A stretch of 64,000 bases of DNA from a virus. Positions 7,843-52,490 of this stretch are shown piece after piece. Made by a program: the position numbers and the translations under genes. The DNA is taken from IMG/VR virus record IMGVR_UViG_3300042402_003740, positions 28,328-92,327 of that record. One strand, given 5' to 3'. The first letter of the stretch is position 1; every line of letters begins with the position of its first letter. Under the pieces are notes generated by a model. It saw only the letters and a list, made by a program, of their open reading frames with translations, did no database searches and had not been told where the DNA came from.

Positions 7843-7843
7843 A

Positions 7844-7914: not shown

Positions 7915-7915
7915 A

Positions 7916-8005: not shown

Positions 8006-8010
8006 ATCAG

Positions 8011-8083
8011 TGGACTGAGGGGGACTTGAACCCCCAACCTCTGCCTTGCAAAGGCAGCGTTCCCCCAGTTGAACTATCAGCCC
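8011..8083 (-). tRNA. tRNA-Ala(TGC)
   Basis: CTGCC-TTTGCAA-GGCAG; G3.U70 in acceptor stem. Confidence 0.93.
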
Positions 8084-8087
8084 AGAA

Positions 8088-8169
8088 TCCGAGAGGCGGG
8101 ACTCGAACCCGCAAGCCGAAAGGCAGCAGATTTTAAGTCTGCCGTGTATGCCAATTCCACCACTCTCAG
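8088..8169 (-). tRNA. tRNA-Leu(TAA)
   Basis: GCAGA-CTTAAAA-TCTGC; variable arm GCCTTTCGGC. Confidence 0.92.
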
Positions 8170-8172
8170 TCA

Positions 8173-8500
8173 TGGAGTCGGGGGGATTTGCACCCCCGTC
8201 CAGAACCACATCAAAGACAAACTTCTACGGAACCTAGTCCGTGTTCTGTACAGCATCGGGACACGGACATCCCTTTGCAGTTTGCGAATCGTTTAGTTCA
8301 ACAGCCTTACGATTCCTATGGCAGTCTATCCGATGGTTTGGGAGGGGTAGATATCGGAGTCTCTACCCCTCCCTTGCCGCTTCAAGCAGCGAGACGAACT
8401 GTGTTAGCAGTTATTGTGTGGTCGATTTTATACAGAGCCGTTCGACCAACTCTGGTGCGCCGTTTGTCTCCTACTTAGCCTGTCGAATCTACTCGACCCC
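8173..8500 (-). ncRNA. ssrA: tmRNA, tag (A)ANTVRLAA
   Basis: 5' GGGGTCGAGTAGATTCGAC; 3' GACGGGGGTGCAAATCCCCCCGACTCCA; resume context ATAACT-GCT AAC ACA GTT CGT CTC GCT GCT TGA. Confidence 0.92.
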
Positions 8501-10472: not shown

Positions 10473-13400
10473 ATGGGAGCAATTATGTCATCATCTTCAG
10501 GACAGGGATTCACAGGCAGTATAGTAAACGGTTTACCCAATTATGTTCTTGCAGACCGCTCTACCATAGGTATGGGCGATGGCGTGACAGGAGCAATACA
10601 GTATGTGAAAATTCTTTGGGGAGGCAGCGGAGAAGCCAATCTTGTAAGCGATAGCGCATCTGATCCTAGTGCATTGCCTGTCAGTCTCAATACTCCTGAA
10701 AATTATTTCTTAACCGATGCTCTGATTAACGGTATGACCTATACCAATGGTGTGACTGCATTTGCGGTAAAAATACTTGATGCAGCGGGATTGTGTCTAG
10801 GAAGTGTAAGTATAAGCCTTGGAGCAGGGTTTACTCTTGAGGCTGTTCGGAGCGGTCTTACTCTTGGGGTGACATTTGGAGCAATCACTGCTCCTGCTGC
10901 TGGTATTGCAATAAAGAACGCTGTTGTTGGTGGAGCGACACAAGCACTAGGAATCACAGGTTCTGTTTATGTTTTGGGTGGAACTGTTGCTGTAAGTGGA
11001 TTAGACCTTAGTTCTTTGAGTTTTAGTAGTGGGTTAACTATTGCTGGTATATCAGCAGGGGTGACTCTACCTGTTCTCTTTTCTGGAGGAACTCTTGACG
11101 GTATATCAAATACAGTAGGAACTAGAATTAAAGGTATTGATGGGGGGGTTACATTTGCCGCTGTTCTGTACTCACCTGGTGGTACATTCTTGGGAAGTGG
11201 TCTATGTGGATCACTGCTTGTATCTGGTGTGACAGGGGCAATCCCTGTCGGTGTGACTTTTGGAACCTTGACAAGTTTAACAGGTTCTATTAATATTCTA
11301 AACACTCCCACCGTAAAGATAGACTCTACTGATAATACGGTAAAGATAGCCTCTACTGATAATACGGTAAAGATAGCCTCTAGTGATAATACGGTAAAGA
11401 TAGCCTCTACTGATAATACGGTAAAGATAGCCTCTAGTGATAATACGGTAAAGATAGCCTCTACTGATAATACGGTAAAAATCCAACCAACTTTGACCAG
11501 CACAGGCACAGCAGGACAGGCTGGTGGAGGAACAACATTTAACTCTGTATTGACAAATTTCAATGGTGTTCCGATTGGCTATGATGTGTCTGGTGGAGTT
11601 GCAACATTCCGTGGATTCCCTGTGCATGGAGTATCTGGTGCAACTGCCATCCCTGTCCAAATAGTTGGCGGCTTGAGTGGTATTACTATTACGGGATTGG
11701 CATTCCCATCGTCATTTGCTGTGTCAGGTGGAACCTTAGCCGTATCTGGTGGAACACTAGGCTTTGTTCAGATTGGCTCTATCTCTGGTGGAACAGTAAA
11801 CATTGGAAATACTGTAACTGTCGCAGGAAGCGTGTCATTTAGCAATACTTCTCTTGATGTCAATGTGAGTAACACTGATGACGCAAATGCAATTGCAGTA
11901 GCACCTGTTTCTGGCTGGAAAGACTCTTCGAATACATCTCTCAAAAGCCATCTAGATGGTCTTACCGTTGCTGTAAGCGGTTTGAACTTTAGTGGCGGTC
12001 TTTCAATTGTTGGAGCAACGGCCATTCCTGTAGGAATTACAGTTGGATCAGGTGCAAGTGCATATGCCTTGGGAGGACTAGGAGTAACATTTGCCTCTAT
12101 AACCATCTCTGGTACTCCACAAGTCTCTTTGAGTGCGGCTTCATCAATTGAGGTTGAAGGTTCCAGTAATTCTAGATTTACGGCTCCTGTTGGGGTTACG
12201 CTTAATGCTTTGCCGTTAGGTATTACAGCGGTCGGAATTTCTGGAGCAACAAGCAGTACTGTTCTTGGAGTTGGATTATACGGAAGAGGTATAAGTGGCT
12301 TTGTTCCTATTGGAGCGTCTGGTAATGCGCTAAATGTAACAGTTGTTGGCGGCTTAAGTGGAATCACTATTACCGGTTTTGCATTCCCATCATCATTTGC
12401 TGTGTCAGGTGGAACCCTAGCCGTATCTGGTGGAACACTAGGCTTTGTTCAGATTGGCTCTATCTCTGGTGGAACAGTAAACATTGGAAATACGGTAAAT
12501 GTGGGCGGAAGCGTAACTGCTTCTATTAGCAATACCCGTGTTCCAGTATTCCTTGCCGATTCAAGCGGCACGGCGATCAGCAGTATAGATGCAGTTCCTG
12601 TGTTTGGATATGCAGGGGCGACTGCCTTGAGAGTTGTACTATCAGACCAACTTGGAACTCCTCTTGCTTTTGGAGCAAGTGGTGCTTCAGGAACAATCAT
12701 TGGTGTTCCTGTTGTGGGAATCTCTGGAGCAACAGCAGTAGGCGTAACAATAGGGGGACCAATCGGTCTACGGGGAATATCTTTTGGAATGACATCAGGT
12801 GTAACCTCTATTGGTGTCCTCTTTACAAATAACTTTGGGGTTCCTCTTGGCCTATCGGGAGCAACTGTTGTTGGTATGCCTGTGTTTGGAATCTCTGGAG
12901 CAACTGCAATTGATGTGCGAATTGTTGCAGGAACATTCGGAGTAACTCTTAATGCAACTATCAACACTTCAGTAACTTTTGGTGCAACTCTTGGTGTTCG
13001 TATCACAGAGGGTTTCTCAACTGGCGCAACATCAGGTGTAACAGGGATTGGTGTACTCTTCGTGAACAACTTTGGGGTTCCTCTTGGCCTATCGGGAGCA
13101 ACTGTTGTTGGGCTTCCAGTGTTTGGAGTCTCTGGAGCAACAGCAATAGGAGTAACTTTTAGCGGTGTAAGCATCAGACCAGTGCTTGGAAGTAGTGGTA
13201 TTGGAGGTTTGAGTGGTGGAGGAACTACATTCAATACAGTGCTTACAACTGTTGCAGGAGTTCCTATCGGTTATGAGTTAACAGGTGGAGCCGCAATATT
13301 CCGTGGATTACCTGTACACGGAGTATCTGGTGCAACAGCAATTCCTGTTGAAGTTACTGGTGCAGGACTGAAATTCTTTGACGGTATAACTTATAACAAT

Positions 13401-15068
13401 GATGGTGAGGCTTTTATTGGAATATGGAACACAGTAAAGATCACAGGCGATTCTTCATTAAGAATAGGTGTGACTTTTGAAGGAACTGTAAGACTAGAAG
13501 CACAGTTCTCAACAGGAGGCCAAGCCTTCGTGAGAGTCGGAACTACAGACGGTGTCTTTGTAGGAGTTACAGGTACTGTTGCACTACAGACATTAGCAAA
13601 TGGCATCACAAGAGGTGCAACAGGAGTAGCAGTACTCTTCGCAAACAACTTTGGTGTTCCTCTTGGCCTATCGGGAGCAACTGTTGTTGGGCTTCCAGTG
13701 TTTGGAGTCTCTGGAGCAACAGCGATAGGAGTGACCTTTGGTGCTATTACCTTTGGTGCTGCTGGAATGGGCGTGACCTTTGGAGGTATAACATTCAGCA
13801 CAACAAGAACCGTTATCGTTGGGACATCGTTTGCTGGAGGCGGTGGCAATCTAGGACTACCTGTATTTGGAGTCGCTGGTGCGACGGCTGTCCAGGTCAG
13901 TGTTGTTGGAGGAACAGTTAGTGGAATCTTTACAACAGAACCAGGTGGAATAACAGTAACAGCCGTACCAACAGGTATTCCTGTCTTTGGTGTATCTGGT
14001 GCAACAGCAATGGGTGTCACCTTTGCAGGAAGAGTAACGGTTACAGGTGGTGTATATCTCCTTGGAACCGCAGGAATAACATTTGGAGGAATCACAGGTT
14101 CTGTAAGTATTGTTGGCACTCCTAGTGTTAGTATACCCAGTGCTGTAAGTGTACAAAACACCAGCGGTGGTTCCCTAAAGGTAGAACCTTCATCGGCATA
14201 CAGTTCCAATAAAATTGTTTCGGGAAGCACAGCAGACACAGGCTTTATTGTTGTACAAAAGCCTGGAGTAAAGTTTGCCCGTGGTCTGACCCTGAGTACA
14301 GATTTTATCAATGTAACTGTTGTTGGCGGTATAACCGCAGTGTCGATCAATACCTCTCCTGTTTGTGTAACAAAGAACTACACTGGAGAGATAGATGGTG
14401 TAATCAACGGAGAGATCTCTGTTCCTCTAAAGCACGGCTTGTATGTACAGATGACAAAGTGGGATCTTCTTTCCCATGTCTATGTTGGATACACAGCAGC
14501 ATCTCTTTCAGAATTTGATAGACACGCACAGGTTCTGTACCGAGAGTACCAGGTTGCGCCAATCTGGGGAAATGCTATGGAGCAGTTCCGTCAGTTTGCA
14601 GGAAATAGTGGAAACTCTTCTGCATTTGCTAACAACACTATGGCAGATGGGTCAGATCTGTCGGCTAATGTCGAGACACACCCTGTCCAGAAGCAGTTTG
14701 TTGGTGTAATTGAAAAGCCCACACGCATCTTTATACCGTGCCGAAACGCAGGAGAAGTGTACATCAAGGTCGTGGGAGACTACACCAATCACACAATCGG
14801 ATCAGGCTTCTGGAATTTCGAAGGAGGAACGGCAGAATGGTCTGCACACACACTCTATGAGCGTGGCTTCTATGCATCAGATATGAGTGCAATCAATGCT
14901 TTCATAGGAGGAGATACCGATGGAGGAAATCCTGCTTTGAATACAGACGGTAGTCTTGTAGAAGGTCTTCCTGGAATAGTAGTTGCTCAACCTGGTTCAG
15001 GTATAGCAATACAGAAGATACTAGATTCGTATCAGAACAATCCGTTCATACGAATTTGGGGACACTAA
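10473..15068 (+). CDS. Large Gly/Val/Thr-rich repetitive virion (fibre-like) protein
   Basis: 1531 aa; many copies of G(L/M/I)PV(F/H)GVSGATA(I/V)GVT; start may be ATG 10485. Confidence 0.7.
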   Translation: MGAIMSSSSGQGFTGSIVNGLPNYVLADRSTIGMGDGVTGAIQYVKILWGGSGEANLVSDSASDPSALPVSLNTPENYFLTDALINGMTYTNGVTAFAVKILDAAGLCLGSVSISLGAGFTLEAVRSGLTLGVTFGAITAPAAGIAIKNAVVGGATQALGITGSVYVLGGTVAVSGLDLSSLSFSSGLTIAGISAGVTLPVLFSGGTLDGISNTVGTRIKGIDGGVTFAAVLYSPGGTFLGSGLCGSLLVSGVTGAIPVGVTFGTLTSLTGSINILNTPTVKIDSTDNTVKIASTDNTVKIASSDNTVKIASTDNTVKIASSDNTVKIASTDNTVKIQPTLTSTGTAGQAGGGTTFNSVLTNFNGVPIGYDVSGGVATFRGFPVHGVSGATAIPVQIVGGLSGITITGLAFPSSFAVSGGTLAVSGGTLGFVQIGSISGGTVNIGNTVTVAGSVSFSNTSLDVNVSNTDDANAIAVAPVSGWKDSSNTSLKSHLDGLTVAVSGLNFSGGLSIVGATAIPVGITVGSGASAYALGGLGVTFASITISGTPQVSLSAASSIEVEGSSNSRFTAPVGVTLNALPLGITAVGISGATSSTVLGVGLYGRGISGFVPIGASGNALNVTVVGGLSGITITGFAFPSSFAVSGGTLAVSGGTLGFVQIGSISGGTVNIGNTVNVGGSVTASISNTRVPVFLADSSGTAISSIDAVPVFGYAGATALRVVLSDQLGTPLAFGASGASGTIIGVPVVGISGATAVGVTIGGPIGLRGISFGMTSGVTSIGVLFTNNFGVPLGLSGATVVGMPVFGISGATAIDVRIVAGTFGVTLNATINTSVTFGATLGVRITEGFSTGATSGVTGIGVLFVNNFGVPLGLSGATVVGLPVFGVSGATAIGVTFSGVSIRPVLGSSGIGGLSGGGTTFNTVLTTVAGVPIGYELTGGAAIFRGLPVHGVSGATAIPVEVTGAGLKFFDGITYNNDGEAFIGIWNTVKITGDSSLRIGVTFEGTVRLEAQFSTGGQAFVRVGTTDGVFVGVTGTVALQTLANGITRGATGVAVLFANNFGVPLGLSGATVVGLPVFGVSGATAIGVTFGAITFGAAGMGVTFGGITFSTTRTVIVGTSFAGGGGNLGLPVFGVAGATAVQVSVVGGTVSGIFTTEPGGITVTAVPTGIPVFGVSGATAMGVTFAGRVTVTGGVYLLGTAGITFGGITGSVSIVGTPSVSIPSAVSVQNTSGGSLKVEPSSAYSSNKIVSGSTADTGFIVVQKPGVKFARGLTLSTDFINVTVVGGITAVSINTSPVCVTKNYTGEIDGVINGEISVPLKHGLYVQMTKWDLLSHVYVGYTAASLSEFDRHAQVLYREYQVAPIWGNAMEQFRQFAGNSGNSSAFANNTMADGSDLSANVETHPVQKQFVGVIEKPTRIFIPCRNAGEVYIKVVGDYTNHTIGSGFWNFEGGTAEWSAHTLYERGFYASDMSAINAFIGGDTDGGNPALNTDGSLVEGLPGIVVAQPGSGIAIQKILDSYQNNPFIRIWGH
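11313..11474 (+). repeat. Six tandem 27-nt coding repeats (VKIASTDNT)
   Basis: GTAAAGATAGCCTCTA(C/G)TGATAATACG x6 with no spacers. Confidence 0.95.
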
Positions 15069-15519: not shown

Positions 15520-16161
15520 TTAACTCCTTTGCTTTTGTGTACGGTCGTAGTGGTCAATAGCCATTTTCAACCTTGGAACATAGTCATTAGTATTGCGAAT
15601 AATCTCCTGCACAATGCCGTCTTCACAGGAGATAAGTATGACAATCTGGGGAACAGCCATTCCTGTGCGCTCTTGCCACATGATTGCATAGGCAGTTGCT
15701 TGGAGGAAATAGTTCTCAATGTCTTCGATACGCTTGGCTTTGGTTGAACCCTTGAAGTCCACCACCGAGAGTTTGCCACGGTATTCCGAAATACAATCGG
15801 TACGCCCTGCAAGACGCAGTAGATCGCTCCACAGGGGAACCTCTTGCCCCCATATTCTGCCAAAGTTCTTTAGATAGGGCTGTAACTGTAGAGCAAGATA
15901 GGTTTCGTCCCGCTGTTCAAGCGTTCCTTTGGAGAGCCAATCTTCCATCAATTTATGAAAATTAGTTCCACGGCGAGTGACCCGTAGGCTCTCTTGTGGA
16001 TTCTCTTCTCTCCACTTGGCGAAGAACTTGTTCTTTTCCCATCCAACAACAGTAGTAACAGAAGGATACACCGCACCGCTAGGCGTGGTATACTGTCGTT
16101 TTCCATTCTCTTCTGTTGTGGATTGTATATCCCAATCTATGGGCAGCGGGTCATAATGCAT
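15520..16161 (-). CDS. Phage PD-(D/E)XK (Cas4-like) exonuclease
   Basis: YPSVTTV, RGTNFH, AGRTDCI...VVDFK, YFLQATAYAIMWQE; typical of T4-like cyanophage exonucleases. Confidence 0.9.
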   Translation of the reverse strand: MHYDPLPIDWDIQSTTEENGKRQYTTPSGAVYPSVTTVVGWEKNKFFAKWREENPQESLRVTRRGTNFHKLMEDWLSKGTLEQRDETYLALQLQPYLKNFGRIWGQEVPLWSDLLRLAGRTDCISEYRGKLSVVDFKGSTKAKRIEDIENYFLQATAYAIMWQERTGMAVPQIVILISCEDGIVQEIIRNTNDYVPRLKMAIDHYDRTQKQRS

Positions 16162-16182
16162 GATTCACGGTATCCTCCGCAG

Positions 16183-16323
16183 TTATTTATGGCGCAAATT
16201 TTTGACTGCTTTGCGTACAAGACTCTCCGTTAGTTCTGCCTTCTTCTGAAGTCCTATTTCGAATTGACGGTCTTCGTTTGTCTTGTTATTTTCTTTTGTT
16301 GGCTTTGGTTGATTCTTCTGCAT
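16183..16323 (-). CDS. Small hypothetical protein (46 aa)
   Basis: MQKNQPK...KNLRHK; tightly packed with neighbours. Confidence 0.5.
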   Translation of the reverse strand: MQKNQPKPTKENNKTNEDRQFEIGLQKKAELTESLVRKAVKNLRHK

Positions 16324-16326
16324 GGC

Positions 16327-16500
16327 TTAATCCTTCTTACCTTTGGCTCGGCTCTTGCTTTTCTTTGGTTCAGGTGGAAGGGTAGTTACAGGAGCCTCTG
16401 CCTTTGGTGCAGGGGTTGTAACAGTTGCCACAGTGTGTGGCTTTTGCCCAAAACCAAAGAGCGACTTTACCCATTCTATTGCTTTTCCTATGAATGCCAT
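16327..16500 (-). CDS. Small hypothetical protein (57 aa)
   Basis: MAFIGKAIEWVKSLFGF...; AAGGA SD. Confidence 0.6.
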   Translation of the reverse strand: MAFIGKAIEWVKSLFGFGQKPHTVATVTTPAPKAEAPVTTLPPEPKKSKSRAKGKKD

Positions 16501-16509
16501 GTTGTTTCC

Positions 16510-16623
16510 TTATGGTAATGACTTGATCCTCTTCAACTGGTCTTGGAGTTCTTTTACCTGTGCCTCAAGCCTTTCAATTCTCTTGAGCAATTCCTGTACC
16601 AGTTCGTTTTCACCATTTTCCAT
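16510..16623 (-). CDS. Small coiled-coil protein (37 aa)
   Basis: MENGENELVQELLKRIERLEAQVKELQ...; preceded by CTAAATA and GGAG. Confidence 0.55.
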   Translation of the reverse strand: MENGENELVQELLKRIERLEAQVKELQDQLKRIKSLP

Positions 16624-16638
16624 AACAATCTCCAGTAT

Positions 16639-17151
16639 TTAGGAGATGAGCAACCTTGCCCACCTCTCCCAGTCCTTCTTTCCCTCAAGAGCCGCATACA
16701 TTATTGCATTTCTTGTGGGAGCAACAGGTCTTTTATGTAGGTGCATTCCTGCTTCTTCGGGTGTGCGATTAGACTTTCTGCGGTTGCAGGGCTTGCAAGC
16801 CGATACGATGTTATCCCAAGAGTTGTCTCCTCCTCGGGATCGTGGCATCACATGGTCAAGGGATGCATTCTTTGAATTGAGATGGCATCCACAGTACTGG
16901 CAACGGTTGCCGTCCCTGCGGTACACATTCCGCTTTGATGGGGACTTTGAGCGGAAAAACGGAACCCGCACATATTCACGAAGAATAATGACCGATGGCA
17001 ACTCAAAGTCGCCACTGGTCGTTTTTATCTTATAGCAGTCGTTGTGGTTGTAGGGTTTTTCTGCTTTTTGGGCAAAAAGCAGTTTGACTGCCTTTACCCA
17101 ATCAATGATATCCAAGACTTCTTCCGAAGCGTTCAGTAGCAATACATCCAT
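16639..17151 (-). CDS. HNH endonuclease (McrA-like)
   Basis: VLLLNAS, RRDGNRCQYCG, SLDHVMPRSRGG, WDNIVSACKPCNRRK. Confidence 0.92.
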   Translation of the reverse strand: MDVLLLNASEEVLDIIDWVKAVKLLFAQKAEKPYNHNDCYKIKTTSGDFELPSVIILREYVRVPFFRSKSPSKRNVYRRDGNRCQYCGCHLNSKNASLDHVMPRSRGGDNSWDNIVSACKPCNRRKSNRTPEEAGMHLHKRPVAPTRNAIMYAALEGKKDWERWARLLIS

Positions 17152-17220
17152 AAGCACCTCTTTCAGAGTAGTTAGGGATACTCTATCTCAAGAACTACAT
17201 GAAGTCAAGATAATAGGTTT

Positions 17221-17577
17221 CTAGAATCTTCTTCTTTTTATTCTCTTGCCTATTCTTCGTGACCTTGCTGTTTTTCTGTTTATTGAGGCTTGCTTTCCTC
17301 TTCGCTTTCTAGCAGCCCTACGGAGTTTCATTTTCTTTCTACGAAGAACAGCGGCAGGAATACGACGAATTTTGCCTTTTACAAGAGTGTACCCTTTTCT
17401 TCCTGCGGTCTTGCCTCTCTTTATCTTTCCACCACGAACACGAATAATTCTTCGGACTCTCTCTAGAAGATACTCACAATCTGCCTCTGCTGCTTCTAGA
17501 GTATCTTCAATGATACATTCATCATCTTTTTGAAGAATTTCTGCCTGTTCGAAAATGAAACTCTTGTATGATTTCAT
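17221..17577 (-). CDS. Highly basic prohead core/internal protein-like
   Basis: MKSYKSFIFE leader, acidic N-part, very Arg/Lys-rich C-part after LLE. Confidence 0.65.
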   Translation of the reverse strand: MKSYKSFIFEQAEILQKDDECIIEDTLEAAEADCEYLLERVRRIIRVRGGKIKRGKTAGRKGYTLVKGKIRRIPAAVLRRKKMKLRRAARKRRGKQASINRKTARSRRIGKRIKRRRF

Positions 17578-19871: not shown

Positions 19872-20122
19872 TGTCTTCCTTTCAAGTAGTTATGCACAGA
19901 GGAAAGATAATCTGCTGCCTTGGTGATCTTGGACTGTACCCATGCCTCAAGTTCCATATCTGAAGAGAGCATATCCGATATAATACTGGCATGGTCAGAG
20001 ATGTTCTTTAGTTCTCCCTTTGCCATATCTACTTCATCTCCAGGTGCATCACCTGTGGTGCTTGGATTTTCAGTCAGTATTTTGATAATTTGCTCTTGCA
20101 GCCGCTTGTTCTCATCTTGCAT
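19868..20122 (-). CDS. Conserved phage hypothetical protein
   Basis: DMAKGEL...LEAWVQSKITKAADYLSSV; preceded by CTAAATA and GGAG. Confidence 0.75.
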   Translation of the reverse strand: MQDENKRLQEQIIKILTENPSTTGDAPGDEVDMAKGELKNISDHASIISDMLSSDMELEAWVQSKITKAADYLSSVHNYLKGRQ

Positions 20123-20197
20123 AGGAAGCCCTCCGTGTATGTTTATTTAGGCTTTTTGCTAGTGAGGCGAGTTCTGTAATGTATTGGTGAAATGTTT

Positions 20198-20875
20198 TCA
20201 TACTGCTACTTGATCCATTAACCATTGCGTGATGATTCTATCATCGCCGCCAAATTCATCTTTATTGCAAAATATAGTCTTTAGCATTTTAACTGGCTTA
20301 TAGGAGATTATCTCTCTTTGATATGAAAATTGCCCTGCGAGTCTTGGTATGTTTGTATATTTGTCTGGATTCATAAAGAATGAGTTCCGAGAGCGTTCAA
20401 GGTCAGCAATAGCAAGAATATGATAAGACTCTTTGTTTCTGCGATACATCTTACCACCAAAATCTTCCACAAGTTTGGGAAGAGCAGCGAGGTCTACAGT
20501 CCATGAAGAAACTACATTCCTTATGTTCGTATATGTGCCTCCACGGACTATTCCCCTATTTCCGCTAACAGATATATTAAAGTTGCTCTTCATTATGTCC
20601 ACAGGTAAATCAGACATCAAGCGATATGCATATTTGTATGATTTTGGCACACGAAGAATATCAGCGTGTTTTCCTGCTTTTTGTGCTGCAATTAATTTTG
20701 GTAGTTCTTTAACCAAAGCAGCATCTCGCCCTCCAAAGTAGTGCTTTTGGAAAGCCTCCCAAGCATCTTCTTCATCCTTTGTGTTTTTCTCTGGTGGTTG
20801 TACAACATCTGTTCGCTCTGGAGCGAACAGCACATTTCCATAGTCTTCTTTCAACCATCGTTTAAGAGATTTCAT
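20198..20875 (-). CDS. Putative ADP-ribosyltransferase (R-S-E type, QxE) with capsid-targeting leader
   Basis: AYRLM...VSSWTVD...YQREII; leader MKSLKRWLKE. Confidence 0.55.
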   Translation of the reverse strand: MKSLKRWLKEDYGNVLFAPERTDVVQPPEKNTKDEEDAWEAFQKHYFGGRDAALVKELPKLIAAQKAGKHADILRVPKSYKYAYRLMSDLPVDIMKSNFNISVSGNRGIVRGGTYTNIRNVVSSWTVDLAALPKLVEDFGGKMYRRNKESYHILAIADLERSRNSFFMNPDKYTNIPRLAGQFSYQREIISYKPVKMLKTIFCNKDEFGGDDRIITQWLMDQVAV

Positions 20876-21905
20876 CTTTTTCCTTATTTTCGTGCATTAG
20901 GTTCGCATATTTTCCCTGATCTGCGATCCAGTCTTCAATGTCACCCATCTGCTGTCCTGCATCTTTCAGTTTTTTCTTCAACTTTTTCTTTGTCTTTGCT
21001 ATTATTCTAGAAACAGCAGATGCTCCACTTCCAACAAGTTTCTTTACACCCTTGACCAAAGCCGTACTCTCTTCCATAGAGTTTTGTCCATTTAGTGCTT
21101 TGGATAGACCATTAACAGCAGACTCATAATTATCAAGAGAAATAGAAGACTTTGCTCCTGCAAGTTTTAGTCTCCCCTGTACACGATATCCAACAGAACG
21201 ATAGGGCTTACCGCCAGATCCTGCTGGTCCTGGACGCATCTCTATGTCGATGTCTCCCTCAAGCATGGGAACCCCAAGACCCAACACATCATTGCCTGTA
21301 TGGAAGAGTCCCATTCCTCCAATTTGAATGTAATCCACATTCTTCTTCTGATAGTGTTGACGAATCCATTGTGCATTGTATCGTATCTTCTTGTTTGTTG
21401 GAATAATAAGTCCCGCTTTCTTGGCGGCTTCCCAATCCTTGTTCTTTACCTTTAGTGGGAAGCCCAATCCTTCTTCAGTATCGTAAAAAGGATCGCCAAG
21501 AGAAGAGAAGTGGTCCAGGAGTTTGTCAAGATACTTTACAACAGGGATAAGAGCATTAGAGAACATCTTCACATCTTCTTCTTTGATTTTGGTAAAATCA
21601 AAACGGTCTACAAGACGATCAGGGAATGACCCAACGAACCCGTCTGCATCTCGTTCATAGTTAATAGATGTACCGCCCATCTGTGCGTTTCCGTCCATCT
21701 TGATCTCCATGTTAATGGTTTGACCATTGATGGTAAAAGAAGCATCTCCGGATCCAGCAGATGAAAATGCTCCACCAGCACTCTCTATTCTCTTGAAATT
21801 AGGATACTCTTTGGCGAGTCTGTCCATGACAGCCTCTACCTTTTTCTCATAATTCACTCCACCCATTCCTACAGTTTCTGTGATATATTCTTTGAAAAGT
21901 TTCAT
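20862..21905 (-). CDS. PD-(D/E)XK nuclease-like protein with capsid-targeting leader
   Basis: YEKKV...GSGDASF...MEIK; leader MKLFKEYITE. Confidence 0.65.
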   Translation of the reverse strand: MKLFKEYITETVGMGGVNYEKKVEAVMDRLAKEYPNFKRIESAGGAFSSAGSGDASFTINGQTINMEIKMDGNAQMGGTSINYERDADGFVGSFPDRLVDRFDFTKIKEEDVKMFSNALIPVVKYLDKLLDHFSSLGDPFYDTEEGLGFPLKVKNKDWEAAKKAGLIIPTNKKIRYNAQWIRQHYQKKNVDYIQIGGMGLFHTGNDVLGLGVPMLEGDIDIEMRPGPAGSGGKPYRSVGYRVQGRLKLAGAKSSISLDNYESAVNGLSKALNGQNSMEESTALVKGVKKLVGSGASAVSRIIAKTKKKLKKKLKDAGQQMGDIEDWIADQGKYANLMHENKEKDEIS

Positions 21906-22041
21906 CTGTTGCTCCTGAATTGATGTTTATTCAGGAGTATGTAGGCTTGGGCTATTCTATAAAAGGAGGAGATTGCATACCATACCTCCCTGTATGTGTT
22001 TTCTAAATCCTATAATATCTAGGATTATTTGGATTTAGAGA

Positions 22042-22833
22042 TCATTTTATAAGATGAGAGAGTGTTTTCACCGCTGATTCGTAGTCATCAAGAGTGTGTT
22101 CCATTTGCACCATGCTGAACTGTATTCTTCCTTGTACTCTTAATCCAACACCACGAACCAAACCATATCTTGAAGGCTTTGATCCAGAAGCACCTGCTCT
22201 GATTTCAACACGAATATTTCCATTCAAAAGAGGAACAGGAAGATGTAGTGGATTTTTACCAGTATGAAACAATCCACATCCTCCTATCTGAATATAGTCT
22301 ACACCTTTTGAAAGATAGTGGTTTCTTATAAAACTAGCGTTTTCTTCAATAAAAGCATTTATTGGTTTTATTAGACCTCTAGAAGTAGCAATGCTCCATG
22401 CCTCTTTTCCCACTACCATTGGAAACCCTTCTATGTTCTGATGGACCTCAAATGGATAAGATGCTTTTAGTTCTCCAATTAGTTTTTCTATTGCGTCTGA
22501 TTTTGAATTCAAGACTGCACGATATATGTCTATCATTTCTGGTTCTATTCCCTCTGACTTTAGGAAAGAAAATCTTTCTTCCTTGGGAAGGGAAGAACGA
22601 TATCTCACAGAGGTTCCTCCCATCTGTGCCTTTTTGTTCATTTTTATTTCAATATAATATTTCTGCCCATTTATTTTTAGAGTGAGATCTCCTGATCCTG
22701 CACTAGAAAAACCTCCACCCACATCCTCTAGAACAGAAAGTTTTGGAAAGTTTTCTGACACCTTTTCACATACGGATCTAACATCTTTTTCATACGCTAA
22801 AGATTTTTGTGTTTGTTTTGTTTTCTCTTCCAT
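22042..22833 (-). CDS. PD-(D/E)XK nuclease-like protein, paralog of 20862..21905
   Basis: YEKDV...GSGDLTL...IEIKMNKKAQMGGTS; VDYIQIGG.GLFHTG shared with its neighbour. Confidence 0.65.
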   Translation of the reverse strand: MEEKTKQTQKSLAYEKDVRSVCEKVSENFPKLSVLEDVGGGFSSAGSGDLTLKINGQKYYIEIKMNKKAQMGGTSVRYRSSLPKEERFSFLKSEGIEPEMIDIYRAVLNSKSDAIEKLIGELKASYPFEVHQNIEGFPMVVGKEAWSIATSRGLIKPINAFIEENASFIRNHYLSKGVDYIQIGGCGLFHTGKNPLHLPVPLLNGNIRVEIRAGASGSKPSRYGLVRGVGLRVQGRIQFSMVQMEHTLDDYESAVKTLSHLIK

Positions 22834-22839
22834 TTTGTT

Positions 22840-24465
22840 TCATCCATTTGGATTTCCAAGCATTTGCTTTAGGTGTTTCTTTCCACCTATTGCCCGAACA
22901 TATTGTCCGTTGCCTTTCCACTCTATTTCTTTTCCACGAAGTACTCTACGAACAATAGACTCATCGTCTACGACTGGCGCACCACGGGATATAAGTATGT
23001 CGAGTATTTTTCCGCTTGCTTCGCCATAACTCCCCTGTGTCTTGAGAATGTCTACGGCTTTCTTCAGCACCTGTCGCTTGGCTTCGGCTCCACCATCGGA
23101 ACCAATTGTTGTCATCTTCTTGCCGAAAAGTGTGGTCTTTGAGAGTATAGCCGCATCCACATCATCGGGTTCGTCTGTGTCTATGACATCGGTGATATTG
23201 TTGTCCGCAGGAACAGAGTCGGCATTGGGAAAATCAGGATGACCACCGACAGGAGCATAGGCGGCATTGACGATATCAAAGATGTCTCGCTGAACATCAG
23301 TGTTCTTACGAACCTCTGCGGTTGCCAGAGATTTCCACTGGTCTTTATTTCGCACAACACCACGCCCTGCCTCTGCAATGAAAGTCTTGAATGAAACGAT
23401 GCTCTCGCCTATGACATCATAGATGCGGTAGCCCGGATACTTGCGCTTTAGTTCTGCAAATATTCTGTCAAGTCCACTACTAGAGAATTTTGCCCCGTCT
23501 TCGCTTGTGGCACTAATGACCTTGCGCTGGTGGTCAATTCTTCCCTGCACAACAGGAGTAACAGAGCGTTCAATCTTCAGCAACTCTGGAAAGACATCCT
23601 CATGGGTATCACGAACAGGGTCTTTTGGACTGCGTATTGTTACACGGGTCATGCCTTTTGATGGCTTTATTTCTGATGAAGCAATCCACAGTTCAGGAAT
23701 CTTGCCCCCTGTTGATACTCCCCATACCTTTTGACGGATACGCTCCATCTCCTGCTCTTGGTCTTTTTCATATGGTGAAACGGAGTGTCCGTAGTCAAGA
23801 TATGCACCCGCAGTATCAACCATGTCTCCAACAATATCAGGGTGCATTTTCAATACATCACGCACCACTTGTTCTGTTTCCCGTTTTGTCTTCTTTACTG
23901 TATCCCTAGTGGATTTCTTGCGGGCTTCGCTCTCACGACTCCATCCAAGCGCATCGGTAATAATATCCTTGTGATCGAATGCAAGGCGTGGAAGACGCTT
24001 CACAGAAATCCACTTTGCATCAACAGCATCATCCTGTCCACGCACACGCTGACCCATCTCTGCGGGAAGAGTGATGGTGTATGCATACGAGATTGACCAT
24101 GCTGTTTTCGTATCACGGGGATCTCGACCGCCTCCCTTGTATATTCCAACCGAACGCAATTTCGAGCGCATCTCTGCTGGAATCTTCAACCCTGTCTCTT
24201 CCTCTAGTTCACGGAGTGCAGCATCGGCAATGGATTCTGTCTGTCCTGCCTTCCACTCTCCTCCTGCCTTTGCGGTGGTGTTTACGAATCCACCTGGTAT
24301 TGCCCACTTTCCGCCTTCGGTCTTGCCAGGTTTACGCTTGATGAGCAGTACCTCAAGTCCTCCATCTTTTGCAGGACGGAATACCACAAGATCTACCGTT
24401 GGATTTGCTCCTGTATAGCGGTAGCCCTCTTTGGCTTCGGTGATGAAGTGTCTAAAGTCTATCAT
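22840..24465 (-). CDS. Nudix hydrolase (ADP-ribose pyrophosphatase/NrtR-like) fused to further domains
   Basis: Nudix box GGFV...ESIADAALRELEEETGL, GRDPR, DDAVDAKW, LAFDH; start MIDFRHFITE in ATGA overlap. Confidence 0.85.
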   Translation of the reverse strand: MIDFRHFITEAKEGYRYTGANPTVDLVVFRPAKDGGLEVLLIKRKPGKTEGGKWAIPGGFVNTTAKAGGEWKAGQTESIADAALRELEEETGLKIPAEMRSKLRSVGIYKGGGRDPRDTKTAWSISYAYTITLPAEMGQRVRGQDDAVDAKWISVKRLPRLAFDHKDIITDALGWSRESEARKKSTRDTVKKTKRETEQVVRDVLKMHPDIVGDMVDTAGAYLDYGHSVSPYEKDQEQEMERIRQKVWGVSTGGKIPELWIASSEIKPSKGMTRVTIRSPKDPVRDTHEDVFPELLKIERSVTPVVQGRIDHQRKVISATSEDGAKFSSSGLDRIFAELKRKYPGYRIYDVIGESIVSFKTFIAEAGRGVVRNKDQWKSLATAEVRKNTDVQRDIFDIVNAAYAPVGGHPDFPNADSVPADNNITDVIDTDEPDDVDAAILSKTTLFGKKMTTIGSDGGAEAKRQVLKKAVDILKTQGSYGEASGKILDILISRGAPVVDDESIVRRVLRGKEIEWKGNGQYVRAIGGKKHLKQMLGNPNG

Positions 24466-25019
24466 AGTGGGTTTCCTACCATCATCTTTGTCATCCGTTT
24501 TCCACCAGAGAAGGTTCGGGTATACCAGCCATCGCCTTCCCATCCATCCATCTTGCCGTGCCATTCGAACTCTACCTTTGGGTCACTCTTGACGATCTTC
24601 TCTACACGCTTTGGATCGTTGATAGGCTTTACTCCCATGCCCATGAGTATCTGTGCGGGTCTTCCTGATATTTCGGTATAGTTCCCACGAACAGAGAGTA
24701 TATCCTTTACCCGCTTCATCATCTGACGCTTCGCTTCCTGCGAACCGTCTGTTCCCATGCCGTGTATAATTCTACCTTTACCCCTTTGCTGTGTGAGTAT
24801 GACAGCATCAATGGCAGAATCATCATCGGTATCTATGACATCAACATCATCGGTTCCCACAGGATCAGAAGAGGTAAACTGCCTATGTCCCGTAGGAAAC
24901 TGTGAGTATACAGACTGTAGAATCTCTCCAATCTGCTTGGCAACATCGGTGTTTCCCTTTACCTCGTTGTTCGAAAGGGTAGACCATTTTCCCTTGATGT
25001 AGCCTTTAAAACTCTTCAT
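24462..25019 (-). CDS. Hypothetical protein, paralog of the C-terminal domain of the Nudix protein
   Basis: NTDV...DVIDTD...GTDGSQEAKRQ...MVGNP aligns with the last ~165 aa of 22840..24465. Confidence 0.75.
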   Translation of the reverse strand: MKSFKGYIKGKWSTLSNNEVKGNTDVAKQIGEILQSVYSQFPTGHRQFTSSDPVGTDDVDVIDTDDDSAIDAVILTQQRGKGRIIHGMGTDGSQEAKRQMMKRVKDILSVRGNYTEISGRPAQILMGMGVKPINDPKRVEKIVKSDPKVEFEWHGKMDGWEGDGWYTRTFSGGKRMTKMMVGNPL

Positions 25020-26422
25020 TCAATTCTTTCCATTTTTTCAGGCATATCCGAACCCAAGATGTCTTGTAGTTCATCAAATACCTCGTTGTACTTCTTTACA
25101 AGTTCAACCCATGTTTGGTTTACATATGCCTTTGCAGGAGTTTTTGTACCGATCTTTACAACCCGTGTAACTTCTGTTTCTCTTCCAACAGAGTTTTTTG
25201 TTCCTAATTTGTTTGCAAACCATTCAGAAAAGATACAGCCATCATCTGTAGGCATGGTGTAAACAATGGGTACATTCATGCCCTCCATTATTTCTTTGTA
25301 TGCATAATCCATTGTTCTAAGTATGGAGCGGACGATACTCTTTTTCTCGGATTTTGATGCGGCTTTGAAACCATTTGCCTGTTTGAGAATGAACTTAAGT
25401 TCTGGTGATGGGAGTACCGATACCGATCCACCAAACAAACCTTCTTGTGTTGCGAAATTGGCTGCTACTGCTGGTTCTGCTGCCCAACTCTGTATGGCTC
25501 TGTTCGCCTTGTACTCTACAGGAACACCAACATATGTTTTTGCCTTCTTTCCACTACCGATTTCCAATAGGTCTTTGGATTTTAGCAATCTATCCAAGGG
25601 TAGGATTCTTTTTGCAACACTACCGTCAACTCCTATTCCACGCCATACCACACTAACAGTTGGTTCGAATTCGTTTGGATAGTCTTTGACACATTTCTTG
25701 ATAAACTCGAAATCTGCAACCATCTTGTTGTCGGCGTGTCCATCACTGTACATTGCATCTCCACCTACCCAGTCGCTAACACTCATCTCTATTTCGTCTT
25801 CTCTTTTGGTGTTCTGTTCACGGCTTCTGTATTTTCCCTGCTCTATTCCAAATACTAGACGCTGAAACACCTTTGTGCATGGGTTTTTGTTGAATTCTTT
25901 TTCCTTCTCTCTTTTCTCTTTGATTTTACCCTTTTGGCCTTCAAGTTTCTCAATCGAAGTCTCTATGGACTTTCTCATCTTTGTATTCTCTTTTTGCCAC
26001 TTGGCTAGACCTGTCTTTTTTATCTGATTGACTCTGCTTGCAGGAAAGTCCAGAAGAGATCCAGACCTGTCGTCAAATCCCAACTGGCGCACATTATCCT
26101 TAAAGTTGCCAATAAGCGGATAGACTGCTGGTTCCAATCCAATTCCTTCATCAAAGAACAGTCTCACGAGGTCTAGTCCTGACTTCATTACACCTCTAAA
26201 CCACTTACGCTCTTCCTCCTTGGTCATGTCAGAGAACCAAGGAGGAAGATCTCCAATCTTTTTGGATGCCTCTTGGAGTTCTCCAATGGCTTCACGAAGA
26301 GAGCCGCTCCGCTCCCCTGGCGGTTCGCAACCGCAACGGGCAATGGCATCCCGCACGGATTCTCCCGTGTCGGTATCCACTCCACGAAGAACATCAAGAA
26401 CTATGGCTCTCCATGACCGCAT
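25016..26422 (-). CDS. Putative ADP-ribosyltransferase (R-S-E type, ExE)
   Basis: VWRGI...IQSWAAEPAVAANFA...RETEV. Confidence 0.6.
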   Translation of the reverse strand: MRSWRAIVLDVLRGVDTDTGESVRDAIARCGCEPPGERSGSLREAIGELQEASKKIGDLPPWFSDMTKEEERKWFRGVMKSGLDLVRLFFDEGIGLEPAVYPLIGNFKDNVRQLGFDDRSGSLLDFPASRVNQIKKTGLAKWQKENTKMRKSIETSIEKLEGQKGKIKEKREKEKEFNKNPCTKVFQRLVFGIEQGKYRSREQNTKREDEIEMSVSDWVGGDAMYSDGHADNKMVADFEFIKKCVKDYPNEFEPTVSVVWRGIGVDGSVAKRILPLDRLLKSKDLLEIGSGKKAKTYVGVPVEYKANRAIQSWAAEPAVAANFATQEGLFGGSVSVLPSPELKFILKQANGFKAASKSEKKSIVRSILRTMDYAYKEIMEGMNVPIVYTMPTDDGCIFSEWFANKLGTKNSVGRETEVTRVVKIGTKTPAKAYVNQTWVELVKKYNEVFDELQDILGSDMPEKMERIE

Positions 26423-26425
26423 GGG

Positions 26426-26815
26426 TTATCCTCCGTAGGCTACGCCCCGCACAAAGAAGTGGTCTTCGTGACTGGTGAATCCAAAGCACTCCCGTGCATA
26501 CTCTATGACAACTGCTGGATCAAACTTCTTGCAGGAGTACAGGTCGAGGGTAATGAAATGGGTGGGTTCAATCGAATGGATCTGTATGCCACTCTCTATG
26601 AGGGGAACCCATCCGCTCACTCCTGCCTTCTCGGGATACACTTCAACACCGTTTTGTGTTGGTGCATGGATAACCACAGGCTGACTCATGCGTGTCATGC
26701 CGATTCGGTCCACCAGACGCTCAAGAAAGCGATAGGTCAACTCCATGTCATCGGCTGTGCCGGGCTTGCACCCGTACATATCAAGGTAATATGAATACCC
26801 GAAAGGTTTTTTCAT
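26426..26815 (-). CDS. speD: S-adenosylmethionine decarboxylase proenzyme
   Basis: LDMYGC, GVSGWVPLIESGIQIHS (E-S pyruvoyl site), LDLYSCKKFD. Confidence 0.85.
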   Translation of the reverse strand: MKKPFGYSYYLDMYGCKPGTADDMELTYRFLERLVDRIGMTRMSQPVVIHAPTQNGVEVYPEKAGVSGWVPLIESGIQIHSIEPTHFITLDLYSCKKFDPAVVIEYARECFGFTSHEDHFFVRGVAYGG

Positions 26816-27645
26816 TCGAGTGGACTCCCATCCATGTAGAGGTTTCTACAGACCCAGCCGTAGTCGCCTTCTTCCATCTTCTTCTGGGCAGTGTTCATTC
26901 TGTCTTTCATCATTCCGAGACGCTTGTCCTGTAGGAACTTGATGTGGTCTTCAACCATTTTGATGCTTTTCTTCCAACTGTTCATGCATTGGATTGCCTC
27001 ACGCTTTTCGGATGCGCTTTCGTGCATAGTCTCCTCGTATCCCATAAAGGGTCTTGGCTTCTTGTTGCAATCCTTGCCTTTGCATGGCTTTGGCTTTGGT
27101 TTGCCCTTTCCACCCTTCATAGGCTCGACCACGGCATCGTCACCGTACATACGGGAATCTGTTTCGTGGAGAGGGGCTTCTGATTCTTTCAGGGAGTTTC
27201 CTTCCTGAACGGCACGGTATGCCCTTGCCAGTGATTCCAAAAGGTCGGCTTCGGTGCGGTCGGTCTGTACAGAATTTGCAGGAGCGGGTGGAACCCCGCC
27301 TCCAAGAATGGTCTGCACCATCTGTGCTGTTTCGCTCTTTGCTATGCGCTCAAATTCGTTGTTTGTCTCCATCGCTCTACCTTCCTTTATTCCTAGTTTA
27401 TTTAGTGCTGCTTCCCGTTGTCCTATCCCTGCGAGTGCCTCTCTTGGCGACTTGAAGTGTCCTACAGGGACCTGTGAATCGTCTGGAACTCCACGCCCAC
27501 TGGTGTCGCCCTTGTAGAGCAGGAACGCTCCAGGACTAGGCTCATGGAGAAAGTACCAGTTCTTCCCAGAACGGGTCTTCCAGCCCATAACAACACCCAT
27601 GCCCTGGTTTAGTCCTGCAATAACTGATTTTTGCCATTTATTCAT
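26812..27645 (-). CDS. Hypothetical protein (possible second in-frame start at 27372)
   Basis: 277 aa ORF with internal CTAAATA and AAGGAAGG before ATG GAG ACA. Confidence 0.65.
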   Translation of the reverse strand: MNKWQKSVIAGLNQGMGVVMGWKTRSGKNWYFLHEPSPGAFLLYKGDTSGRGVPDDSQVPVGHFKSPREALAGIGQREAALNKLGIKEGRAMETNNEFERIAKSETAQMVQTILGGGVPPAPANSVQTDRTEADLLESLARAYRAVQEGNSLKESEAPLHETDSRMYGDDAVVEPMKGGKGKPKPKPCKGKDCNKKPRPFMGYEETMHESASEKREAIQCMNSWKKSIKMVEDHIKFLQDKRLGMMKDRMNTAQKKMEEGDYGWVCRNLYMDGSPLE

Positions 27646-27646
27646 T

Positions 27647-28621
27647 TCATTTTACTCCGTATTGCTTGTCTATTGATGCCCATTCACCCTTGCAGAAGTC
27701 TACGACTGCCTGTATGTAGGCGGTAATCTCGTTCGGGGTGATCTTGCCCATAGAGGGGTTGAAGCCGCTGCCTTTGCCCAGGCGACCCACACGCTCCATC
27801 TTGCCGATGCTCTTCTTGAAAGCCCTGGCAATGGCATCAACACGGGCAGGATCGAATTGCTCAGAAGTGCCGTCGTTCCTGCCGTAGTACTGGTTTGACC
27901 CGTTCTGTAGACCCGAGAGCACGGACATGACCATCTCTAGGCGGCTCATTGCCATGTCGCCGCTCTTCCAGTCTTTCAAGACCTCTTGTGCATAGACAAG
28001 CCACTCCTTGCGGTTCCTGAAACTCTCTGGCATCATGCGAAAGTGCTTCTGTGCCATTGTCTCGGGCTTGCCTGGTTTCTTCTCGTTTCCCCCAGCCTCG
28101 TCCAGTTCGACCGATTCTCCTACAAACTTCTTGCCCCGACCGCTCTTGAGGAATCCGTGTAGCCATGCCTGTGGATCTTTGCTGCCTGGATAGGTCTGTG
28201 GCAGTGGTTTACCGTGCAGTTCTCCGGTGATGCCCCCAAAGTAGTCTTCGTATTCCATAAAACCCACCTTTTTGCCACCCTTCAGGATGTCATAGTGGGT
28301 TGTGGACTGTGTGCCGTCCTCTGTTTTTTTCTTTTCCACCTTGGTTTTCTTTAGAGAATACTCCCCGACACCTTCGTGCAACCCAAGGGATTCCTTCACC
28401 ACCTGTATCCCCTTGTAACGGCTCCGCACCAATTCTGCACCTGTAAGAACATCCACAAGATCCTCATAGTGGTAGTCTGTTGCAACAGCCTCGCTTGAAT
28501 AGGGTCCCGCTACCTTCATCTTGCCACCAGACTTGTACACGGCATAGTACCCTTCAGGGTCAACCTTGCCTATTCCTCTGGCGGCTTCGTCTAATCTTCT
28601 AATATCCTTGAATCGCTTCAT
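27647..28621 (-). CDS. Putative internal head polyprotein
   Basis: MKRFKDIRRLDE leader; internal VKE/LHE/VGESVELDE linkers. Confidence 0.65.
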   Translation of the reverse strand: MKRFKDIRRLDEAARGIGKVDPEGYYAVYKSGGKMKVAGPYSSEAVATDYHYEDLVDVLTGAELVRSRYKGIQVVKESLGLHEGVGEYSLKKTKVEKKKTEDGTQSTTHYDILKGGKKVGFMEYEDYFGGITGELHGKPLPQTYPGSKDPQAWLHGFLKSGRGKKFVGESVELDEAGGNEKKPGKPETMAQKHFRMMPESFRNRKEWLVYAQEVLKDWKSGDMAMSRLEMVMSVLSGLQNGSNQYYGRNDGTSEQFDPARVDAIARAFKKSIGKMERVGRLGKGSGFNPSMGKITPNEITAYIQAVVDFCKGEWASIDKQYGVK

Positions 28622-29487
28622 CTCTGCTTCTCCTCTAAATATTGGCTGTTGTAATCTTCGAATTTACGCAGTACCGCCTCTCTGCCGTCAAAAACCTGTA
28701 GTTTTTGCTCTGGTGTAAGCAGCCGCCAGGCACCTGGTGACATTAGTGTTTCCCTACCATCGGTTGTTTTTTCTGCTAGTGGAACATAGCAGCGGCACTG
28801 TATTGGGGTCTTCTCTAATCTTACAATTTCAGACTCTGCGGGGTTTCCAAAGTGGACAAGATTAAGGCTTTCGTCCGGGGATATCTTGTACTCTAGAACA
28901 AAGTGTATGCGTTGCTGTTTCATCTGGTCAGACCACCAACTGTCTGTGACCCCTGTAAAGTCGCCTGTTGCAAATCCTAGTGCCACTCTCTGTTCTGTCG
29001 TCCATGACTGTGCAACCGACCGGGCCTCGTAGCGTAGGGTTCCCTCTGCACACTGTAGTGGTCTTTTGCCCCTGTACAGGGTTGTGATTCTTTCAAATTT
29101 GAATGCATTGGCAAATCTCTTCACTCCAAACCCTTCGCCACGGTACACATTCCCGCTGTATCGTAGCCACGATCCAGTCTTTCCACACCCCTGTATCATT
29201 CTCTTTATACGAAGAACAAGATCTTCAGGGGTGTAGTCCCGTTGAGCCTTGAATCCCATCATCCACTTGTTCATGGTGTCTGCAAGCCCTGCAATCTCTT
29301 CGTTCTTTGCCTCTTTTGCTGCCCTCTCTATCCATTGCCAGCCTTTGCCTCTAAAATGGTCAATAGGAGAACCCTGAAACAGAGGAGGATTTGACCCGCC
29401 CAAGAGATGACACAACCCACGGGAGAAATCTATCTCTCCTCCACTCTTTGACTCTAGTATCTCTATGAATTGGCGGTAGCGTTTCAT
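28618..29487 (-). CDS. Putative ADP-ribosyltransferase (R-S-E type, ExE) with capsid-targeting leader
   Basis: VYRGE...AQSWTTEQRVALGFA...AESEIV; leader MKRYRQFIEILE. Confidence 0.62.
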   Translation of the reverse strand: MKRYRQFIEILESKSGGEIDFSRGLCHLLGGSNPPLFQGSPIDHFRGKGWQWIERAAKEAKNEEIAGLADTMNKWMMGFKAQRDYTPEDLVLRIKRMIQGCGKTGSWLRYSGNVYRGEGFGVKRFANAFKFERITTLYRGKRPLQCAEGTLRYEARSVAQSWTTEQRVALGFATGDFTGVTDSWWSDQMKQQRIHFVLEYKISPDESLNLVHFGNPAESEIVRLEKTPIQCRCYVPLAEKTTDGRETLMSPGAWRLLTPEQKLQVFDGREAVLRKFEDYNSQYLEEKQR

Positions 29488-50121: not shown

Positions 50122-50143
50122 TTGGAAATAGATAGTGTGATAG

Positions 50144-50216: not shown

Positions 50217-50232
50217 TTGATAGTTTGATTTT

Positions 50233-52489: not shown

Positions 52490-52490
52490 T

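Follow-up and report, generated by a model that had tools for sequence, protein, structure and literature searches.

According to a literature survey, myoviruses are predicted to package ADP-ribosyltransferases (ARTs) and Nudix proteins often in their virions; the usual R-S-E forms among these ARTs belong to the Alt/VIP2 and Mod families, and NudE and the NadM-type proteins are the two main phage Nudix clades (PMC9503650). The internal proteins of phage T4 are diverse, and their sole common element is the capsid-targeting sequence (CTS), which loads them into the prohead core (PMC3012670). In this study, we analysed a 64-kb window, by which we mean the whole stretch of DNA from base 28328 to base 92327 of the 92-kb IMG/VR record IMGVR_UViG_3300042402_003740 (completeness 43% according to CheckV), in which three candidate ART genes, P0001, P0002 and P0003, lie close to a gene for a Nudix protein of the ADP-ribose (ADPR) type. 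The general concept of packaged phage ARTs and Nudix proteins is already known. To our knowledge, T4 Alt is the single well-studied case of a phage-injected ART, and no ART- or Nudix-type enzyme is among the known internal proteins of T4, which are restriction inhibitors or small basic proteins. ModA and ModB of T4 are early proteins and are not packaged.

Considering all the results below, we propose that this locus belongs to a T4-like giant phage that packages leader-tagged ARTs as injected writers together with an ADPR-directed Nudix hydrolase, a reading to which we assign a probability of about 0.6. The four genes at its centre, with the evidence for each open reading frame (ORF), are as follows.

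20198-20875, minus strand: P0003, 225 amino acids, predicted ART of the QxE type (ORF, motifs, profile hidden Markov model (HMM), structure model)
22840-24564, minus strand: Nudix ORF, with the likely gene at 22840-24465 (Pfam NUDIX match, ATGA start)
25016-26422, minus strand: P0001, 468 amino acids, predicted ART of the ExE type (ORF, motifs, profile HMM, structure model)
28618-29487, minus strand: P0002, 289 amino acids, predicted ART of the ExE type (ORF, motifs, profile HMM, BLASTP)

The ART family and its relation to Mod and Alt

The original prediction, made from the sequence, had described the three ORFs as divergent R-S-E paralogues. All three are present on the minus strand with the lengths given above, and every quoted motif was found and its codon positions checked: VWRG (R261), QSWAA (S312), VAANFA and RETEV (E415 and E417) in P0001; VYRG (R116), QSWTT (S161), VALGFA and AESEI (E218 and E220) in P0002; and AYRL (R85), SSWTVD (S124) and YQREI (Q186 and E188) in P0003. 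The upstream E(Q/K)NTKxE motif reported for P0001 and P0003 is also there, as EQNTKRE and EKNTKDE.

Pairwise BLASTP among the three proteins was almost blank, the exception being P0001 against P0002 around QSW (E 9e-4). Homologue searches found five relatives of P0001 (40-93% identical) and 21 of P0003 (46-99% identical); the word-index search with P0002 found P0002 itself only, and BLASTP with P0002 matched many members of the family directly, down to E 1e-11. When the P0001-family profile was run against 1.84 billion cluster representatives, 109 proteins were matched at E<=1e-3, most of them 200-330 amino acids long, and the matched part corresponded to the C-terminal 290 residues of P0001. 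A profile HMM of 109 family members, built with P0002 excluded, picked out P0001 (194 bits), P0002 (51-52 bits) and P0003 (40.3 bits) among the 342 ORFs of the 92-kb record and no others (next-best ORF, E 0.14), with YRG, QSWT and ExE-hydrophobic-hydrophobic-R in register across the three proteins. In a six-frame search of the near-identical record G003, only the same three proteins matched. Profile-profile comparison (hhalign) linked the P0001 family to P0002 with 71% probability; between the small P0001 family and the P0003 family it gave no significance, and that link emerged with the 110-sequence profile only. From the genome-specific HMM scores, the matches in G003 and the BLASTP matches of P0002, we conclude that P0001, P0002 and P0003 are, judged by sequence homology, true and highly diverged paralogues, as had been predicted.

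The family alignment contains 110 sequences with a mean column identity of 9%. Only two of its columns are invariant, the Arg and the Ser (each 110/110), and the columns conserved above 90% are the W (108/110), both positions of the ExE motif and a few others; the second Glu is present in 107 of 107 sequences, and the first position is occupied by E (101 sequences) or Q (five). The quoted motifs are more than a chance resemblance, because they are the most conserved columns at this low mean identity and align in register among the three proteins. P0003 is the QxE variant: Q is invariant in its 19-member subfamily, as are R85 and S124, and at least 90% of the members share E188. The family has a further near-invariant motif apart from the canonical catalytic ones, E-x-[DN]-T-x-x-E (109/110 for the first E, 106/110 for the T and 109/110 for the last E), which follows C..FG..LFG; EQNTKRE at E202-E208 of P0001 (25799-25819) and EKNTKDE at E29-E35 of P0003 (20771-20791) correspond to it.

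The domain layout differs among the three proteins. In P0001, a conserved module made of the first 55 or so amino acids and a Lys/Glu-rich linker precede an ART domain at residues ~180-468 (25019-25885) that bears a helical insert. P0002 consists of a leader followed by the ART core and does not carry the N-terminal E-x-x-T-x-x-E motif. In the P0001 subfamily, the N-terminal 55 residues are more conserved than the ART domain (residues 1-56, 26255-26422; MRSWR...CGCEPP.ERSGSLREAI.DLQEA). This module also exists as a standalone protein of 62 amino acids (P0071) and has a gp21-type LQE/A site at its end.

Structure models were made for P0001 and P0003. The original prediction had named predicted structures without an ART fold as its refutation; over the core, both models matched ADP-ribosyltransferases exclusively. 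The P0003 model has a predicted local distance difference test (pLDDT) score of 71, and about 35 of its top 50 structural-neighbour chains belong to the ART superfamily; the top neighbours include KptA/Tpt1, scabin, DarT and pierisin, in rows tied within 1 Z unit. The best neighbours of P0001 are Vis, C2-I and iota-like enzymes. The Arg, which follows W or Y in all three proteins (R261, R116 and R85), lies on the first core strand of the models (79-87 in that of P0001, 82-91 in that of P0003); S-W-[TSA] sits on a strand that precedes a helix (131-135/138-147 and 123-126/131-138, respectively); and at [E/Q]xE a strand begins, after a loop, at the catalytic E. The models thus support an ART fold for P0001 and P0003, with the R-S-E residues on the expected strands. 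A suggested Foldseek comparison against PDB and BFVD returned nothing at E<=1e-3, its weak rows being pertussis S1, Rhs ART toxins and uncharacterized jumbo-phage proteins. The language-model neighbours of the proteins, which are leads only, include DRAT, NarE, Lart1 and Mod clusters, and DRAT is among the nearest named clusters of P0002.

These results bear directly on the explanation that the R, S and ExE motifs arose by chance in proteins that are not ADP-ribosyltransferases. It would account for the empty Pfam, NCBIfam, PHROG-function and PDB sequence searches and for the lack of a significant Foldseek match, but it is close to refuted by an Arg and a Ser that are invariant, and other motif residues that are near-invariant, across 110 divergent sequences, by structural matches to ARTs only, by the profile-profile link to the Mod family described below and, as leads, by the language-model neighbours. 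We therefore regard the family as a large, mostly viral, R-S-E-type ART family without a Pfam match or functional PHROG annotation. The Pfam and PHROG scan of all 110 members gave chance Pfam matches and unnamed PHROGs only, and the 50,697 GenBank phage records yielded nothing, either to megablast with the region or to tblastn with P0001, P0003 and four further family members.

When the family was compared by hhalign with single T4 sequences, the probability was about 50% with ModA and with ModB and 0.2% with Alt. Against a Mod profile of seven ModA/ModB homologues from Straboviridae, the probability rose to 80% (E 1.4e-5, over only 65 columns), with YRG paired with L(Y/W)RG and QSWT...A..FA with V.S(F)(S/T)...A..FA. 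In contrast, HMMER found no match to the family profile in the T4 genome. Because the link covers 65 columns at 80% and T4 gave no HMMER match, T4 ModA and ModB appear from sequence to be the closest known relatives, remotely related within the R-S-E clade, and the new proteins are not placed as members of the Mod family. Like ModA and ModB, they are ARTs of small size from T4-like phages and have the motifs aromatic-R-G, S-[WF]-[ST]...A..FA and ExE; unlike them, members of the new family often begin with a capsid-targeting-like leader, and the family conserves an additional motif (C..FG..LFG, E-x-[DN]-T-x-x-E) in its N-terminal part. The likeness to Alt is of another kind. Alt is a head-carried ART that is cleaved by the prohead protease, enters the cell with the injected DNA and acts immediately on host proteins, according to the T4 annotation and PMC9503650, and we propose the same life cycle for the new proteins. 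The P0001 neighbours Vis, C2-I and iota-like enzymes resemble VIP2/C2-type toxins at the fold level only; the new proteins showed no sequence similarity to the single Alt sequence compared by hhalign, are much smaller, carry an IpII/IpIII-type leader and occur as three paralogues, one of which is QxE.

ExE is typical of arginine-specific transferases of the R-S-E clade, and QxE goes with other acceptors, either asparagine as in C3-type enzymes or DNA as in pierisin and scabin. ModB is also said to attach NAD-capped RNA. An ART fold with a different chemistry is therefore an alternative, in which the proteins would be NAD+ glycohydrolases, ModB-like RNAylating enzymes or nucleic-acid ADP-ribosylases. 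The QxE motif of P0003, its neighbours KptA/Tpt1, scabin, DarT and pierisin, and the reported RNA attachment by ModB of the closest family would fit it. The neighbour rows of P0003 are nevertheless tied too closely to discriminate a substrate, as is true of the modelled structural neighbours in general, the best matches of P0001 are protein-targeting C2/Vis-type enzymes, and ExE points to arginine; we consider this alternative quite unlikely.

Capsid-targeting-like leaders and probable delivery with the DNA

The T4 internal proteins IpII and IpIII start with MKTYQEFIAE, as confirmed in the T4 record. The starts of the four proteins compare with this leader as follows.

20846-20875, minus strand: P0003 leader MKSLKRWLKE, resembling T4 IpII/IpIII
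24436-24465, minus strand: Nudix leader MIDFRHFITE, resembling T4 IpII/IpIII
26375-26422, minus strand: P0001 start MRSWRAIVLDVL, a weaker leader match
29452-29487, minus strand: P0002 leader MKRYRQFIEILE, resembling T4 IpII/IpIII

Seven ORFs of the 92-kb record open with the motif M[KRI]x[FYWL][KRQH]x[FYWI][ILV], all of them inside one cluster at 17.2-29.5 kb; they include P0002, P0003 and the Nudix gene, with P0001 joining them more loosely. Under a stricter pattern that required the closing Glu, a leader-like start was present in 36 of 112 family representatives and in 11 of 932 background ORFs, an enrichment of about 27-fold (Fisher p 3e-28), and several of the 11 belong to the leader clusters of the records G000 and G001. 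Within the P0003 subfamily the leader is found in eight of 21 members, and the 13 leaderless ones start with MAK(V/T)PDYG right at the domain, a split that recalls packaged Alt and non-packaged Mod. A mini-ORF of 29 amino acids at 20112-20201 is scarcely more than a perfect leader, MKTFHQYITELASLAK, and may be the remnant of a lost internal-protein gene.

The relative G001 (a record of 150 kb with a completeness of 83%) has about 45 genes in common with this phage (30-82% identity, partly syntenic) and encodes both a gp23 homologue (E 1e-133) and a gp21 homologue of the Peptidase_S77 type (E 5e-42). At 107273-111977 of G001 (loci L026 and L012), six consecutive leader-like genes form a parallel internal-protein array, with the leaders MKPFRQYITE, KSFRVHITE (on a Nudix gene), MKSFTQHLRE, MKRFVQHMDE, MIDFRSYLTE and MNTFRSYLTE. 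Since the 92-kb fragment is without gp21, a gp21-type protease is attributed to this phage through the relative only.

The original prediction had called the enzymes injected. This part is borne out only indirectly, through the IpII/IpIII-like leaders and through a relative that has gp21 and gp23. By analogy with T4, packaging and prohead cleavage of the four proteins are well motivated, and because they carry T4-style capsid-loading leaders, the ARTs and the Nudix protein probably enter the host together with the injected DNA. Like IpI, IpII and IpIII, they have an N-terminal decapeptide of the MKTYQEFIAE type that ends in Glu and are encoded by clustered, fast-diverging genes. Unlike the T4 proteins, the putative new cargo would be ART and Nudix enzymes.

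Genuine ART-fold enzymes might instead stay unpackaged and act inside the infected cell like ModA and ModB, the N-terminal decapeptide being a recombination or translation-initiation cassette. Such a role would suit proteins whose closest known relatives are not packaged, a family in which many members have no leader (including the 13 of 21 homologues of P0003) and a fragment in which neither gp21 nor a late promoter was found. We nevertheless think it unlikely: the leader is close to the experimentally defined CTS of T4 IpII and IpIII (PMC3012670), is confined in the 92-kb record to the gene starts of one cluster, recurs as a parallel array in the gp21-bearing relative and is strongly enriched in the ART family. 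We therefore retain packaging with the virion as the preferred account of these leaders.

The Nudix protein beside the ARTs

The Nudix ORF matches Pfam NUDIX (E 6e-16), and the domain occupies residues 55-202 (23959-24402). It adjoins the ARTs and carries the GRDPR, DDA and LAFDH signature of the ADPR type, as predicted originally, together with an intact RE-x2-EE box, RELEEETGL, with R118, E119, E122 and E123; a 12-amino-acid insertion lies in the Nudix-box loop upstream of it. The best NCBIfam models are the bifunctional NadM-Nudix (E 9.5e-14) and the ADPR-responsive repressor NF050029 (E 2.5e-11), both scoring under the full-length cut-offs because the domain alone matches. Relatives of the domain in PDB are 2qjo (the NadM-Nudix of Synechocystis), 1q33 (human NUDT9), 3gz8 and 5bs6, and they include NrtR-type regulators. 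Many NrtR regulators are without an intact catalytic box. As the box is intact in the new protein, its sequence makes Nudix hydrolase activity likely.

The gene probably starts at M34 (24463-24465), giving the leader MIDFRHFITE, because in the sequence ATGA this start codon and the TGA stop codon of the gene upstream overlap. Behind the Nudix domain follow two further modules, and the following two features connect the second of them with the upstream gene.

22843-23394, minus strand: C-terminal module of the Nudix protein, residues 391-574, a paralogue of the 185-amino-acid gene
24462-25019, minus strand: gene of 185 amino acids with the leader MKSFKGYIKG, a paralogue of the Nudix C-terminal module

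The two are 36% identical (E 9e-28), and an internal leader-like SFKTFIAE precedes the C-terminal module; because of this paralogy and the internal leader, the Nudix protein looks like a gene fusion. The homologue in G001 is a standalone domain of 175 amino acids, 56% identical. The new protein therefore resembles NadM-Nudix, NrtR and NUDT9, its top NCBIfam and PDB matches, in the signature residues and the intact box; it differs from them in having neither an NMN-adenylyltransferase nor a helix-turn-helix domain, in the 12-amino-acid insertion, in its leader and in its fusion to two modules that lack an assigned function.

Whether the Nudix protein works together with the ARTs is the weakest step of our proposal. 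It may act independently of them, in a packaged or early housekeeping role such as control of the NAD+ or nucleotide pool, NAD-cap or mRNA decapping, or ADPR detoxification. This is a real possibility, although we lean against it. In G001 the Nudix gene stands in the leader array and the only ART lies about 9 kb off and leaderless, T4 NudE adjoins ipIII in the T4 record without a known tie to Alt or Mod, and unrelated genes occur in the same cluster here. In favour of a coupled function, the ADPR-pyrophosphatase clade fits the substrate class of three neighbouring NAD+-using enzymes, the same type of leader stands on all four proteins (loosely on P0001), and a joint deployment of ARTs and Nudix proteins has been proposed in a literature survey (PMC9503650).

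The gene cluster, a plausible model and its meaning

The genes at ~17.2-30 kb of the window lie on the minus strand and look like a single operon, because they are tightly packed, with overlaps or gaps of 1-4 nt. Besides the genes already described, the leader motif marks the following features.

17221-17577, minus strand: further leader-bearing gene
20112-20201, minus strand: leader-only mini-ORF of 29 amino acids
20862-21905, minus strand: further leader-bearing gene

The last of these and 22042-22833 (minus strand) are tandem paralogues, 42% identical (E 9e-55), which both match phrog_26930 (function unassigned); the leader MKLFKEYITE is on 20862-21905 only, not on its paralogue. The gene at 26426-26815 (minus strand) resembles an S-adenosylmethionine decarboxylase (Pfam AdoMet_dc, E 7e-17), and G001 has a gene 73% identical to it. 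Directly downstream of the cluster (minus strand, 15520-17157) follow two more genes, one PD-(D/E)XK nuclease-like (15520-16161) and the other for an HNH endonuclease (16639-17157). Two giant ORFs on the plus strand, at 189-7457 (2422 amino acids) and 10473-15068 (1531 amino acids), do not match Pfam; the PHROG scan, which covered only the 2422-amino-acid ORF, gave no match for it. The majority of the large ORFs in the window have no family match. The window also contains 16 tRNA genes and a transfer-messenger RNA (tmRNA) gene in two groups (7843-8500 and 50049-58996), the tmRNA tag being ANTVRLAA. Sigma-70 and terminator scans of the window gave background levels.

We propose a plausible model for the preferred reading of packaged, injected enzymes. 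The ART and Nudix genes would be expressed alongside the head genes, the leader would bring each protein into the prohead core, and a gp21-type prohead protease would cut the leader off after its Glu. The mature enzymes would be ejected into the cell together with the DNA. There, the ExE enzymes P0001 and P0002 would ADP-ribosylate host proteins from host NAD+, probably on arginine, and the QxE enzyme P0003 may modify a different acceptor, either another side chain or nucleic acid. The Nudix protein would hydrolyse free ADPR or NAD-derived molecules, or trim ADPR adducts.

Several points weigh against this model. Sequence searches of Pfam, NCBIfam and PDB with the three ARTs gave no match, a PHROG scan of them gave no functional annotation, and the family profile is not matched in T4. 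The predicted ART fold of P0002 comes from homology, and the catalytic triads of the two models were placed by strand position, not by geometry. The P0001 start fits the leader only loosely; the 92-kb fragment, less than half of the genome by the CheckV estimate, yielded neither gp21 nor gp23; and the T4 late-promoter consensus TATAAATA has no match in the window. The decarboxylase-like gene, unrelated and leaderless, stands within the same cluster, and the link between the Nudix protein and the ARTs is the weak step already named.

Beyond the packaged ARTs and Nudix proteins already known or predicted, the locus reveals an ART family of considerable size and mostly viral membership (at least 109 clusters at 50% identity) that is invisible to Pfam, NCBIfam and PHROG annotation and is missed by current domain libraries. 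In about one third of its representatives this family is fused to an IpII/IpIII-type leader. The locus further adds a Mod-like catalytic domain behind such a leader, in three diverged copies, one of them QxE, within one internal-protein cluster, and a leader-tagged, multi-module Nudix protein of the NadM type. More speculatively, and with what we judge a slim chance, the ART family could be a habitual enzymatic cargo of the T4-type leader, injected as a diversifying arsenal in which ExE and QxE forms strike different host molecules, accompanied by an ADPR-type Nudix protein that destroys ADPR-derived defence signals or trims adducts. If true, trimming of the ART adducts to phosphoribose would leave marks that host ADP-ribosylhydrolases cannot erase, a two-enzyme 'write and lock' strategy delivered ahead of phage gene expression. 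A definition of the ART family would improve the annotation of T4-like and giant phages, and the repertoire of 'internal proteins' would extend past restriction inhibitors.

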